DNA from: Stx2-converting phage Stx2a F578
Sequence record: LC487997
Strand: one strand, 5' to 3'
DNA: 24,274 nucleotides
Each line of letters opens with the position of its first letter. Within the stretch, counting starts at the first letter, position 1. Below are positions 6,001-12,000 of this stretch, in pieces. The position numbers are program-made.

Positions 6001-9000
6001 TCGTGTCACCCACATGCTGTACTGCACCTGGGCCATGTAAGCCGACTTTATGGCCTCGAAACCACCGAGCCGGAACTTCATGAAATCCCGGGAGGTAAAC
6101 GGGCATTTCAGCTCAAGGCCATTGCCGTCACTGCATAAACCATCGGGAGAGCAGGCGGTACGCATACTTTCGTCGCGATAGATGATCGGGGATTCAGTAA
6201 CATTCACGCCGGAAGTGAACTCAAACAGGGTTCTGGCGTCGTTCTCGTACTGTTTTCCCCAGGCCAGTGCTTTAGCGTTAACTTCCGGAGCCACACCGGT
6301 GCAAACCTCGGCAAGCAGGGTGTGGAAGTAGGACATTTTCATGTCAGGCCACTTCTTTCCTGAGCGGGGCTTTGCTATCACGTTGTGAACTTCTGAAGCG
6401 GTGATGACGCCGAGCCGTAATTTGTGCCATGCATCATCCCCCTGTTCGACAGCTCTCACGTCGATTCCGGTACGCTGCAGGATAATGTCCGGTGTCATGC
6501 AGCCACCTTCTGCTCAGAGGCTTTCTGTTTCAGGAATCCAAGAACTTTCACTGCTTCGGCCTGTGTCAGTTCTGACGATGCGCGAATGTCGCGGCGAAAT
6601 ATCTGGGAACAGAGCGGCAATAAGTCGTCATCCCATGTTTTATCCAGGGCGATCAGCAGAGTGTTAATCTCCTGCATGGTTTCATCGTTAACCGGAGTGA
6701 TGTCGCGTTCCGGCTGGCGTTCTGCAGTGTATGCAGTATTTTCGACAATGCGCTCGGCTTCATCCTTGTCATAGATACCAGCAAATCCGAAGGCCAGACG
6801 GGCACACTGAATCATGGCTTTATGCCGTAACATCCGTTTGGGATGCGACTGCCACGGGCCGGTGATTTCTCTGCCTTCGCGGGTTTTGAATGGTTCGCGG
6901 CGGCATTCATCCATCCACTCGGTAACGCAGATCGGATGATTACGGTCTTTGCGGTAAATCCGGCATGTACAGGATTCATTGTCCTGCTCAAAGTCCATGC
7001 CATCAAACTGCTGGTTTTCATTGATGATGCGGGACCAGCCATCAACGCCCACCACCGGAACGATGCCGTTCTGCTTATCAGGGAAGGCGTAAATTTCTTT
7101 CGTCCACGGATTAAGGCCGTACTGGTTGGCGACGATCAACAATGCGATGAACTGCGCATCGCTGGCATCACCTTTAAATGCCGTCTGGCGAAGAGTGGTG
7201 ATCAGTTCCTGTGGGTCGACAGAATCCATGCCGACACGTTCAGCCAGCTTCCCTGCCAGCGTTGCGAGTGCTGTACTCATCCGCTTTATACCTCTGAATC
7301 AATATCAACCTGGTGGTGAGCAATGGTTTCAACCATGTACCGGATGTGTTCTGCCATGCGCTCCTGAAACTCAACATCGTCATCAAACGCACGGGTAATG
7401 GCTTTTTTGCTGGCCCCGTGGCGTTGCAAATGATCGATGCAGAGTGATTCAAACAGGTGCTGGGGCAGACCTTTTCCCATGTCGTCTGCCAGTTCTGCCT
7501 CTTTCTCTTCACGGGCGATCTGCTGGTAGTGACGCGTCCAGCTCTGAGCCTCAAGACGATCCTGAATGTAATAAGCGTTCATGGCTGAACTCCTGAAATA
7601 GCTGTGAAAATATCGCCCGCGAAATGCCGGGCTGATTAGGAAAACAGGAAAGGGGGTTAGTGAATGCTTTTGCTTGATCTCAGTTTCAGTATTAATATCC
7701 ATTTTTTATAAGCGTCGACGGCCTCACGAAACATCTTTTCATCGCCAATAAAAGTGGCGATAGTGAATTTAGTCTGGATAGCCATAAGTGTTTGATCCAT
7801 TTTTTGGGACTCCTGGCTGATTAAGTATGTCGATAAGGCGTTTCCATCCGTCACGTAATTTACGGGTGATTCGTTCAAGTAAAGATTCGGAAGGGCAGCC
7901 AGCAACAGGCCACCCTGCAATGGCATATTGCATGGTGTGCTCCTTATTTATACATAACGAAAAACGCCTCGAGTGAAGCGTTATTGGTATGCGGTAACGC
8001 CGCGCTCAGGCGGCTTTGATAGTCATATCATCTGAATCAAATATTCCTGATGTATCGATATCGGTAATTCTTATTCCTTCGCTACCATCCATTGGAGGCC
8101 ATCCTTCCTGACCATTTCCATCATTCCAGTCGAACTCACACACAACACCATATGCATTTAAGTCGCTTGAAATTGCTATAAGCAGAGCATGTTGCGCCAG
8201 CATGATTAATACAGCATTTAATAAAGAGCCGTGTTTATTGAGTCGGTATTCAGAGTCTGACCAGAAATTATTAATCTGGTGAAGTTTTTCCTCTGTCATT
8301 ACGTCATGGTCGATTTCAATTTCTATTGATGCTTTCCAGTCGTAATCAATGATGTATTTTTTGATGTTTGACATCTGTTCATATCCTCACAGATAAAAAA
8401 TCGCCCTCACATTGGAGGGCAAAGAAGATTTCCAATAATCAGAACAAGTCGGCTCCTGTTTAGTTACGAGCGACATTGCTCCGTGTATTCACTCGTTGGA
8501 ATGAATACACAGTGCTGTGTTTATTCTGTTGTTTATGCCAAAAATAAAGGCCACCATCAGGCAGCCTTGTTGTAAATGTTGCAGGTATCAAGTAAGTAAT
8601 TAGATGGAGCGCCATAAATTATGAATTCATCGTTTGTCGGGTCCATCTCCATCTCTTGTCCTATTGCCATTCTTGCGTCAGTGTCGTCAGCGGCGAAGCA
8701 TAAAACAGCCCACGCACCCATTGTTTTAAAAAGAACTGCAATTGGCTGTGGTTTTACTGAATTTGCGTTAGCGCGAAAATCACAAATCGCACTTTCATGA
8801 AATTCCATATATCACCTCAAATAAGTGGTTTGCTGCCTAATTTCATTTTCTGGCGACCAACACAAGTCATCTTGCTGTCAGTTGTTTGGATTTACGGTAG
8901 CCTGCCGCGTAAAGAGCTACATTTGGAAGACAAGTTGAGCCTTCATATTTTCTGGTCAACGTTGTCAGTGTTATTACTTCTGCTCTCATTGCTGGTTTGC

Positions 9001-12000
9001 GTTTGCATTGTAAGACCACTCGTGATGGGGTTGGCCTGTGTAGTTTGTCGGAGCTAATCGCCTCCTGACTTTGCAGGTTTGCGCGACGAGCTCTACGGCG
9101 AGAAGCTGCGGTGCCTTTAAATTCTGTTTTTCTGGACATAGATTCCTCCCGAATAAACTTTGGCGATGCAATCTCGAAGCTCCTCCTGAGACGGTTGCTT
9201 CGGCATTGCATCCCACAGCTTATGTGGTTGGGTGATCTGGCTTTTCAGCCACGTAGTCGAGAGTCGACGTTGTTTAAAGAGCCTGCCAGTCTGTTCCATT
9301 TGGCTTCCAGCGTCCTGCTGATGGTTAAATAGTACGATATGTACTTCACTTGGTCAATACAATTTGTTCTAAAACGGGGCGTTTTTTTACAACGCTTTGT
9401 ATTTAATAGTATTGTTTTTTAGCGTGGGTGTATTGCCTCGGCGATGTAAGGAGAGATCAGAATTGCGTTGTTTAGTGAGTTGTATCTATTTATTTTCCAA
9501 TAAATACAATTGGTTATGTGTTTTTTTGGGCGAGAGGAAAAGAAAACCCGGCATGGAGGCCGGGTTGATGATTAGCGGTGTGGCCTTGAGCGATAATGCT
9601 CACACACATGTTCAAGATTTCCATGCCTTATCCGTTCATAGGCATTCACATGAACTTCTCGATCGAATTGGTCATTCAAATTGTATGTAGACATCTGTGT
9701 TTTCTCATATTGGCGGCAGCCCTACAACCGCTTGAAAAAATGTACCAGACGCGCTAAGGTTACATCGCAAATATTGTGTACCTTAACAAGGGCTCCTTTT
9801 GGAGGCTCTGGTTAAACAGCATCAATGTCGGACTGGGGAGTTGGACATTGTGCTGAATGCTTTTGCATTATTGAGGCCGAACGTAAACCTTCAGAATTGA
9901 AGAGATGCGTTCGGCTTCTTCGTTTGTGATATCGTTAGGAATGCCTTTAATCGTTACTGTAACCCCTGATTCAGGTCGAAGAACTACTGGAAGATCATAG
10001 GTATGAAGTGCATTAGCCTTGCCTTCGACTTTTGTTGGTTCGCCAGTCAAATCTTTTTCCTCACTGGATTCTTTGTCAATCGGAGTGTATGGGATTTCTT
10101 CACCAGACTGGAAAGCTACAAACTTTTTGATTGCACTTTCCATGCGGCTTTTATATGCAGTAATGCTGCTGTCGCTAGGCTTCGGCTCAGTTGCGTTGAT
10201 GTATCGCTCGGCAAGCTCATTCACATCAAGCTGAGTAACATCACCCATTTCCTCTTCTTGGACTACCGTTAAGAGGCGAGCGGATGAGTTTTTTAAATTT
10301 CGAGCGGTGGCCTCCTTCATTATGTTCAGCGACATAAGCTCTTCAAGGAAGTCCTTGAATGCCTGCACGCTAACGTTTGACTTTGCCATTTGCTCTCTCT
10401 CTAAGTTATTGACTCAGATCGAGTTTATCCAGGAATTGATTTGCATGCAAGACTCAAGTCTTGAGAATTTCCGTTCAAGATCCACTCTCAATAAAAAAGG
10501 CCGCACCTCTGCGACCTTTCATCTCCTAAATCTCTTTTCTCTTACCTAAAGAAACAGCAGGCTGGGTCAGCCCTAACAACTTCAAGTGCATCGGTCAGAG
10601 AAAGCTCCGTGCTATACAGGTGTTATTTCATATCTTTTTGCATCCAATAAATTTTCCATCTGTCCAGAGAGCGGATGCACTTGATTCTTGTTGATGGCAG
10701 GACGTTTTTTCACCTGCCTCACCCTGCCATACAGGACGCTGCTCACCGATATCTATCGTCCGGTCATTGATGTTATAGACAATATCCAGATCATTACGGA
10801 TATACTCAGATGGCCTTATGCTTTCAATGAATAGATGAACTTCTTTTTGACCGCTTGATACTCATGGCCATTAAACTCCATCTATCCTCTTTACCCAAAC
10901 GTCTCTTCAGGCCATTGGCTGGCGATAACTTTCCCCACAACGGAACAACTCTCATTGCATGGGATCATTGGATATTGCGGGTTTAGTGGTTGTAGAAACA
11001 CCTGACCGCTATCCCTGATCAGTTTCTTGAAGGTAAATTCATCACCACCAAGTCTGGCTATGCAGAAATCGCCGGGCTCAACAGCTTGCTCAGGGTCAAC
11101 CAGAATTAACATCCCGTCAGGAAAACTAGGTTTGGAACCTGTTGGTGCGGTCATTGAGTTACCTTCAACCTCAAGCCAGAATGCAGAGTCACTGGCTTTT
11201 TTGGTTGTGCTTACCAATCTCTCCGCATCACCTTTGGTAAAGGTTCTGAGTTCTGGAGAGAACATCCCAGCCTGAACATGAGAAAAAACAGGGTACTCAT
11301 ATTGTTTTTTAACTGGGGCCGATGAGTATTCGCCAACAGGTGAAAATGTCCCGTCGTGGTTGAATGATATGTTATCAATACCAAGGTATTTAAACACCAC
11401 ACCAATATCACTAAGAGATGGATGACGAGATCCGCGCAACCAGTGTCCAATTCCACCCTGCGTCATACCTAGCTCTTCGGCTAACTTCTCTTGAGTTATG
11501 CCGAGCTCTTTCATTCTGGATCTAGCCAGTTCATACCATTTCATTTTCATGTCCTTATTATTACGCTCTGTACTGGAACCATCCATGCACAATGTGTATT
11601 TTTACTTGTATTTGAGAAGTACATATTGTATTTTTTATTCGTGGTTACTATGGAGGGCATATGAGCAACCTACGAAAATATCGAGAGTCACTGAATATCT
11701 CTCAAACAACACTTGCTAAGGCAGTTGGATGCACACAGGGAGCTATCGGACATTGGGAATCTGGTCGTCGCTTCCCAGACCTTAAAACATGCCGTGCTCT
11801 TGTTGCGTGTCTAAACAAGTTAGGCGCAAAAGTAAGTCTTGATGACGTGTTCCCGCCGGAGCACAAAGCCGCTTAATAAGCGGAGCCGCTCTTTGTAACA
11901 ACGGACATTCGTCCTACGTCGCTGAAAAGCGAGTCCCAAGATATCTGACCAACTAAGGCCATATGCGTTTCCACGCATACCTTTCAACTAACTATTCACT

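Follow-up and report, generated by a model that had tools for sequence, protein, structure and literature searches.

The N/nut antitermination module of an Stx2-converting phage and its candidate GAAA-looped boxB hairpins

The N/nut system described here lies in a stretch of 24,274 nucleotides from the Shiga toxin 2 (Stx2)-converting phage Stx2a F578 (sequence record LC487997), hereafter the window, and is compared with the systems described for phages H-19B and lambda. Footprinting of H-19B nutR revealed two hairpins, with N protecting the loop of boxB and NusA plus Rho protecting the spacer, and the H-19B nutR/tR1 region has served in published assays as a terminator that depends on Rho (PMC3526286). 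The lambda N protein reads a GNRNA pentaloop folded as GNRA with one base flipped out, and a U-A closing pair is needed (PMC12027372, citing Legault 1998, and Tan and Frankel 1995). For boxA, NusB:NusE binding was reported at 5-8 nM for the rrn sequence versus 80-90 nM for that of lambda, an approximately tenfold tighter binding of the rrn form (PMC2800207).

The nut layout of H-19B, found also in HK97 and SPN9CC, consists of a boxA region ending in ACAAY, a G, a spacer hairpin, UACG and a boxB of 5 base pairs (bp), and the same layout was found in the window. Phage 933W presumably has an H-19B-type N/nut system too. The spacer dyad is said to have been named the "reducer" by Neely and Friedman (Mol Microbiol 2000), its stem being of importance and the sequence of the stem not. 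On the observed sequence anatomy, homology and co-variation of N motif with boxB loop, the window very probably carries the processive antitermination module (N/nut) of an Stx2 prophage of the VT2-Sakai/1717 type, in which boxB would be the second, GAAA-looped hairpin of each nut site.

Anatomy of the two nut sites

A composite pattern made up of boxA, spacer hairpin, CTACG and boxB (GCTCTTT N3-4 CAACG N10-13 CTACGT N GCTGAAAAGC N AG) had two matches only in the window, at 9237..9282 (minus strand) and 11888-11933 (plus strand), each of 45-46 nucleotides (nt). Shuffled sequences gave 0/100 matches, in a run with the 11-13 gap version of the pattern, which catches nutL only. The first site, nutL (GCTCTTTAAACAACGTCGACTCTCGACTACGTGGCTGAAAAGCCA, 9282..9238, minus strand), lies after pL and before N, and the second, nutR (GCTCTTTGTAACAACGGACATTCGTCCTACGTCGCTGAAAAGCGA, 11888-11932, plus strand), lies after cro and before cII. 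The boxA of nutL begins 47 nt downstream of the end of the candidate pL -10 element, and that of nutR begins 12 nt past the cro stop codon, so that each site is located in its early operon where lambda has the corresponding nut site. The original prediction had placed matched nutL and nutR sites in this region; the sites were confirmed, and the layout, the positions and the homology of N support their identity as those of a lambda-type N antitermination system. Its coordinates (9250..9283 and 11887..11916) did locate the sites, but left out the boxB hairpins (9251..9238 and 11919-11932). The similarity of the two sites to each other and to known nut sites held on alignment, CTACG being invariant in the four-site alignment with H-19B as well as in the phage panel. 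The nut sites are not annotated in records NC_011357, NC_000902 and AP005154, and none of the seven Rfam matches in the window is a nut site, there being no Rfam family that covers them.

At both sites a spacer dyad, a feature of H-19B-type nut sites, is present between boxA and boxB. Both second hairpins show the 5-bp stem, the U-A closing pair and the GNRA-like loop of a lambda-type boxB, and a GCUCUUU-type boxA lies 5' of each. From the first nutR hairpin to the cII start (window 11903-12020), 116 of the 119 aligned bases are identical in H-19B, including the whole spacer hairpin GGACATTCGTCC, and the sole indel is one base of the boxB loop, which is GAAA in the window and GACAA in H-19B (UCGCU-GACAA-AGCGA). 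Because of this alignment and of the published H-19B footprint, boxB was assigned to the second hairpin.

Several points weigh against the module as read here. When each nut RNA is folded in isolation, the structure of lowest energy is not the two-hairpin form but one in which boxA is paired to the 3' half of boxB (-14.1 versus -12.0 kcal/mol for nutL and -12.0 versus -11.7 kcal/mol for nutR). The short nut RNAs also reach only modest fold z-scores (-2.0 and -1.2). The co-variation counts presented below come, among the matches listed, from related, mosaic phages, and the events are not independent. No paper describing this N or the nut sites of VT2-Sakai/Stx2 phages was found in a literature search, the coverage of which was limited and which is not proof of novelty. 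Finally, H-19B antitermination can reportedly do without boxA, NusB and S10 (Neely and Friedman 2000), and given this the role of the good boxA in the window phage is uncertain.

The computed folds could reflect an RNA switch: base pairing of boxA (GCUCUUU) to the 3' half of boxB (AAAAGC), with the spacer hairpin enclosed, would keep both elements hidden as long as neither had been captured by N or NusB/S10. For nutL as well as nutR the fold of lowest energy contains this pairing, in agreement with such a switch. However, the energy margins are only 2.1 and 0.3 kcal/mol, and the complementarity of GCUCUUU and AAAAGC is near-inevitable wherever a consensus boxA meets an A-rich loop adjoining a GC stem. 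In addition, H-19B-type nutL sites, being devoid of GCUCUUU, cannot make the pairing, and co-transcriptional folding would form the local hairpins first. The switch is thus considered improbable, and the boxA:boxB pairing is regarded as a by-product of a U-rich boxA near an A-rich loop.

Both boxA sequences had been described as nearer to the rrn consensus than to lambda's CGCTCTTA, and this was borne out, nutL having the rrn boxA with one inserted A. The rrn leader boxA TGCTCTTTAACAA was found at 100% identity in all 5426 complete Escherichia coli genomes searched, at a median of 7 places per genome. An rrn-like boxA as a special trait of this phage was rejected, since P22 has CGCTCTTTAAC and CGCTCTTTACC and HK140 has CGCTCTTTAAC; the lambda boxA is the odd one out, a weak variant.

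The N protein and its start

In the N protein of the window, an arginine-rich motif at about residues 11-26 is followed by LHRPTPSR..KRKP, a motif resembling that of the NusA region of lambda N, and the C-terminal segment CLPNVALYAAGYRKSKQLTAR is identical to that of H-19B N. It matched the Pfam family PF25694 (N_peptide) from residue 1 to residue 90 with E = 3.4e-32, an end-to-end match to a model of 100 positions. In a BLASTP comparison with lambda N (E = 4e-5) the arginine-rich motif and residues 30-50 were aligned; the motifs stand in register (AASRRRARRANLQSQE against AQTRRRERRAEKQAQW), and the window segment LHRPTPSRVVLQCKRKP aligns with lambda N VNRPILSLNRKP. The latter segment lies in the NusA-binding region of lambda N, at residues 34-47. 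A search of the PDB sequences with N gave no match even at E <= 10. The Pfam match and the lambda N alignment are in agreement with the original prediction of an N-like protein with an N-terminal arginine-rich motif. Its length of 90 amino acids had been given correctly, but it is not unusually short, as N has 90 residues in HK140 and POCJ13, 100 in P22 and 107 in lambda.

This length depends on the start codon. The frame is open from an ATG at 9211, and three public records, those of phages 1717 (NC_011357), VT2-Sakai (NC_000902) and Stx2 II (AP005154), annotate 345 nt for N, which would give a product of 114 amino acids with the arginine-rich motif in an internal position; the frame of POCJ13 is likewise open, from a GTG. 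Against the longer product, GGGAGG stands 5 nt before the ATG at 9139 and nothing comparable before 9211, and the upstream ATG lies within a leader hairpin of 67 nt (-30.4 kcal/mol). The N proteins of H-19B, HK97, SI8 and SPN9CC start with MTRRT.F.G, aligned with MSRKTEFKG of the short form, and their upstream leaders are unrelated; the annotated N of POCJ13 has 90 amino acids, and the Pfam match spans exactly the short form. The RefSeq entry of lambda N is over-extended in the same way (133 versus 107 amino acids). A 114-residue N is therefore held to be scarcely probable, and the form of 90 amino acids starting at 9139 is favoured, the 114 amino acids of the public records being taken as an over-extension. 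The annotation would need correction in three respects, namely the start of N (9139 and not 9211), the absence of the nut sites, and the name "hypothetical protein" that the Prokaryotic Genome Annotation Pipeline gives to the N gene in E. coli chromosome records.

The 198-nt leader of N had a fold z-score of -3.76 relative to shuffles. Its hairpin (9155..9221, minus strand) may, as we assume, be the counterpart of the stem in the lambda N leader that is sensitive to RNase III.

Hairpin loops and N motifs across relatives

The conservation of the sites was followed in 80 viral contigs with an N of at least 98% identity, a set informative on flank variation and not on diversity. The cores of boxA, UACG and boxB were constant in these contigs, the boxA of nutL being conserved and that of nutR kept despite a variable flank on the cro side. 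The stem of the nutL spacer hairpin was also kept, its loop being CTC, ACAC, ACTC, ATC or GCAC.

More distant sites were collected by scanning viral contigs with CTACG-NN-GCTGA-N(1-2)-AAGC, a pattern that leaves the outer two boxB pairs free, and at least 120 loci were obtained. Among the matches listed, all five boxB positions were paired in 84/92 sites with a GAAA or GACAA loop, for a chance expectation of about 6% for two free pairs, and pairing was mostly lacking in sites with other loops. When all the loci of the comparison were pooled with the window, at least 63 distinct sites combined a stem paired throughout with a loop of GAAA, GCAA or GACAA. At least ten different boxB stems were counted among them, and the spacer hairpin ended exactly at the C before UACG in 61/63. 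The spacer stems fell into at least six unrelated sequences (GGAC/GTCC, GTCGA/TCGAC, GATTCA/TGAATC, GGTGA/TCACC, GGCC/GGCC and GGACG/TGTCC). Both hairpins are conserved as structures, and the loop is conserved in the second only.

The N proteins of the phage panel had arginine-rich motifs of two lengths. In the long-motif group (H-19B, HK97 and SPN9CC) N has 127 amino acids and the motif is SRRRERLKAKALANGVLAR. The boxB loops of H-19B and HK97 are GACAA at both sites; in SPN9CC the nutR loop is GACAA, closed by a U-G pair, and the nutL loop is different. In the short-motif group, which comprises the N of the window and of POCJ13 (90 amino acids each) and of SI8 (120 amino acids), the motif is 7 residues shorter (e.g., SRRRARRANLQSQ), and the boxB loops are tetraloops, GAAA in all cases but POCJ13 nutL, which has GCAA. 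The SI8 protein is an informative mosaic, in which the short motif is combined with the middle segment of 29 residues known from the long proteins, and the SI8 loops are GAAA at both sites. The same relation was seen in the contigs (again among the matches listed): nutL sites with GAAA were followed by a short-motif N in 22/22 cases (13 distinct N-terminal sequences) and those with GACAA by an N with the motif 7 residues longer in 18/18 (3 distinct sequences). At least 115 loci had two opposed sites, with GAAA/GAAA in 95, GACAA/GACAA in 18 and GAAA/GCAA in 2, and none of the 115 mixed a tetraloop with a pentaloop. In POCJ13 (locus L085, 3890-3903) and related loci nutL has GCAA and nutR GAAA, so that the second loop base appears to be free, as expected for GNRA recognition.

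These data bear on the first hairpin after boxA (9268..9256 and 11903-11914), which the original prediction had counted as the hairpin of the site, between boxA and TACGT, and which on that reading would be boxB, the N-binding element, the GAAA hairpin being incidental. It is present in both window sites, and in lambda and P22 boxB is the first hairpin 3' of boxA. Nevertheless, its loops in nutL (CUC) and nutR (AUUC) differ from each other and from any GNRA-type boxB loop, and contigs with the same N swap the nutL loop for ACAC, ACUC, AUC or GCAC. The nutR hairpin GGACAUUCGUCC is the same with either N type, so that it cannot be what sets specificity. The N motif follows the loop of the second hairpin, and it is on the second hairpin that N was found in the published H-19B footprint (PMC3526286). 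The claim for the first hairpin was accordingly abandoned as very improbable, and boxB is placed in the second, GAAA hairpin. That the similarity of nutL and nutR is a mere chance or a recombination scar, with antitermination independent of the sites, deserves practically no credence in view of the absence of composite matches in shuffles, the canonical positions, the core conserved across contigs with differing cro-side flanks, and the homology to the experimentally used H-19B nut site.

From the co-variation it may be proposed that the short-motif N proteins (window, POCJ13, SI8 and some twelve variants from metagenomes) together with their boxB hairpins of the GAAA/GCAA type form a separate specificity class, with a lambda-like helix register and a canonical GNRA loop without a flipped base, that would not cross-react with the GACAA class of the same mosaic Stx/Salmonella pool; the case for this proposal appears evenly balanced. 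If it is true, a natural specificity switch would consist of no more than one loop base and an indel of 7 residues in the arginine-rich helix, and it would also offer a ready-made orthogonal pair for RNA tethering. The natural one-base difference in boxB appears to separate two N specificities, and could serve orthogonal N-boxB tethering tools. No description of a natural tetraloop boxB class was found in the literature search, and older papers on the N of VT2-Sa/VT2-Sakai or other Stx phages may cover it.

The early operons and known systems

Between positions 8800 and 12050 the window matches Stx2-converting phage 1717, a record with annotated N, cI, cro and cII, at 100% identity; with many further phages of E. 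coli O157:H7, of both the Stx1 and the Stx2 kind, the identity is 99.9%. VT2-Sakai has the identical N protein and matched 76% of the length of the entire window at 98.4% identity, extending to stx2A. In related phage records the gene order from left to right is int, the recombination genes (exo, bet, gam), kil, cIII, ea10-like, N, an open reading frame (ORF) of 173 amino acids, cI, cro, cII and the replication genes, and the Pfam matches of the window proteins were in accordance with it (S24 peptidase and helix-turn-helix in cI, helix-turn-helix in cro, Phage_CII in cII and N_peptide in N). The region is the immunity and early-regulation segment of a known lambdoid Stx2 prophage of the VT2-Sakai/1717 type, and the DNA of N plus nutL is present in 759-818 of the 5426 complete E. 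coli genomes (about 14-15%). The features of the region are collected in Table 1.

Table 1. Positions of the nut elements, N, cro and regulatory candidates in the window.
Feature	Position	Strand	Remarks
nutL boxA	9270..9282	-	GCUCUUUAAACAA (GCTCTTTAAACAA); rrn boxA GCUCUUUAACAA plus one extra A
nutL spacer ("reducer") hairpin	9256..9268	-	GUCGA-CUC-UCGAC; hairpin reported in the original prediction
nutL linear spacer	9252..9255	-	UACG, joining reducer to boxB; the reducer stem ends with the C just before it
nutL boxB (predicted)	9238..9251	-	5-bp stem UGGCU/AGCCA, GAAA tetraloop, U-A closing pair
nutR boxA	11888..11901	+	GCUCUUUGUAACAA (GCTCTTTGTAACAA); GCTCTTT and AACAA kept, GT between
nutR spacer ("reducer") hairpin	11903..11914	+	GGAC-AUUC-GUCC; identical in H-19B nutR
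nutR boxB (predicted)	11919..11932	+	UCGCU/AGCGA stem, GAAA tetraloop
nutR to cII start	11933..12017	+	Homologous to H-19B nutR/tR1; includes hairpin 11962-11979
N gene	8867..9139	-	90 amino acids; begins MSRKTEFKGTAASRRRARRANLQ; GGGAGG 5 nt before ATG
N leader hairpin	9155..9221	-	67 nt, -30.4 kcal/mol; between nutL and N start; covers ATG 9211
Candidate pL promoter	9329..9357	-	TTGACC, 17 nt, TACTAT; promoter scan, consensus match only
cro	11661..11876	+	71 amino acids, helix-turn-helix
First terminator-like site downstream of N	8547..8568	-	9-bp stem, U-rich tail; consensus match only
Second terminator-like site	8401..8422	-	Directly before ea10-like gene (DUF2528)
Terminator-like sites in agreement with the original prediction	1747..1728, 5162..5144	-	Consensus scan
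Further terminator-like sites	7982..7963, 5757..5735, 2157..2136, 2125..2106	-	Consensus scan

The candidate pL (9357..9329) coincides with promoter and operator features of record AP005154, where the label at this position is that of the cI maintenance promoter (mislabelled). The 173-residue ORF (9868-10389, minus strand), which has no Pfam match, lies between cI and pL, the position of rexA/rexB in lambda, and a strong terminator-like site (9545-9566, minus strand) follows it directly before the pL region. At the start of cIII a match of 88.5 bits to the Rfam family Lambda_thermo (the cIII thermoregulator element) was found at 7888-7946 (minus strand).

In positions 1-13000 of the window, 32 terminator-like sites were counted versus 13.2 +/- 3.9 in shuffles, all of them consensus matches only; the leftward strand was enriched in them, and some were also seen rightward. 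Leftward terminators had been predicted near 1725, 5138, 8394 and 8547, and terminator-like sites were present at all four on the minus strand. By analogy with lambda, the recombination and int/xis genes can fairly be expected to depend on N, since terminator-like sites lie between N and them. On the rightward way to Q the sites include 16661-16688 and 20256-20277. The first of these, after ORF 16051-16662, is a hairpin of 10 bp, rich in GC and with a U-run on each strand, that resembles a bidirectional terminator, and polymerase from pR would have to cross it before Q.

A hairpin at 11962-11979 (plus strand; TATGCGT-TTCC-ACGCATA), between nutR and cII, is common to H-19B, HK97 and POCJ13, and in SI8 and SPN9CC most of the stem is kept with another loop (TATGCGC-CAGT-GCGCATA). 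The hairpin probably belongs to the tR1/cII leader region. By homology to H-19B, the nutR to cII stretch of the window would be Rho-dependent.

All the binding steps and the read-through are inferred here from lambda and H-19B. The pL and pR transcripts would each carry a nut RNA composed of boxA (GCUCUUU..AACAA), CG, a spacer hairpin of 4-5 bp, UACG and boxB (5-bp stem, GAAA). The N protein of 90 amino acids would bind the boxB tetraloop via its lambda-like arginine-rich helix, NusA would join through the LHRPTPSR..KRKP region and UACG/spacer, and NusB/S10 may join at the rrn-like boxA. The spacer hairpin may fold out the extra nucleotides, making the distance from boxA to boxB as short as that of lambda, as in the "reducer" idea for H-19B. 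The C-terminal CLPNVALYAAGYRKSKQLTAR segment, identical in H-19B N and shared with P22 N, may keep the complex on RNA polymerase. Leftward, the modified polymerase would pass the terminators before ea10, cIII-kil-gam-bet-exo and xis/int, and rightward it would pass tR1 and the later sites toward Q, hence stx2. It is by N-dependent read-through from pR that transcription in an induced Stx2 prophage arrives at Q and subsequently at stx2 (window 23043-24002), which makes N and the nut elements part of the toxin-expression cascade.

Further elements were seen along the rightward half of the window. Rfam matches to isrK (74.7 bits), C4 antisense RNA (66.7 bits) and sRNA-Xcc1 (75.7 bits) in the nin region (18666-18851 and 19442-19525, plus strand) stand directly upstream of ORF 19565-20239, which may correspond to the Ant antirepressor annotated in the same part of phage 1717. 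A candidate pR'/tR' region (promoter-like 22247-22274, terminator-like 22305-22324) is followed by three tRNA genes (22701-22949, plus strand), a further terminator-like site (22965-22984) and the 319-residue ORF 23043-24002 (plus strand), the counterpart of stx2A.

The system is a textbook one, the phage has been sequenced many times and its N is annotated, and the pairing of a tetraloop with a short-motif N is a modest, testable refinement. The likeness to the rrn leader antitermination system lies in the NusB/S10 site, nutL matching the rrn boxA apart from the inserted A and nutR keeping GCUCUUU and AACAA; rrn antitermination operates without boxB and without N. With gp24 of P22 the window N has the C-terminal LPGVALYAAGHRKSKQITAR segment in common, and the P22 boxA is GCUCUUUA; P22 differs in its GACAA boxB, the lack of a spacer hairpin, the arginine-rich motif and the middle of the protein.

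The likeness to lambda comprises the arginine-rich core in the same register (lambda TRRRERRAEKQAQ, window SRRRARRANLQSQ) and a boxB in which a U-A pair closes a G..A loop on a stem of 5 bp. In contrast, the lambda loop is a pentaloop (GAAAA or GAAGA) and that of the window a plain tetraloop; Trp18 of lambda N is replaced by Glu; lambda has no spacer hairpin and a weaker boxA (CGCUCUUA); and the C-terminal RNA-polymerase region of lambda N is unrelated to that of the window N. The simplest reading is that a lambda-like helix would dock here on a canonical GNRA tetraloop.

In comparison with H-19B, the N of the window is 57% identical over the aligned columns, the last 21 residues being identical and the EAISS..LHRPT.SR motif common to both, but it has 90 amino acids versus 127 and is devoid of 7 residues of the arginine-rich helix and of the 29-residue middle segment. 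The boxA sequences differ conspicuously as well, with GCTATTT in H-19B nutR and no GCTCTTT in its nutL, whereas both sites of the window phage have GCUCUUU and are thereby much nearer to the consensus. The GACAA pentaloop and the long arginine-rich motif of H-19B are replaced in the window phage by GAAA and by a motif 7 residues shorter.

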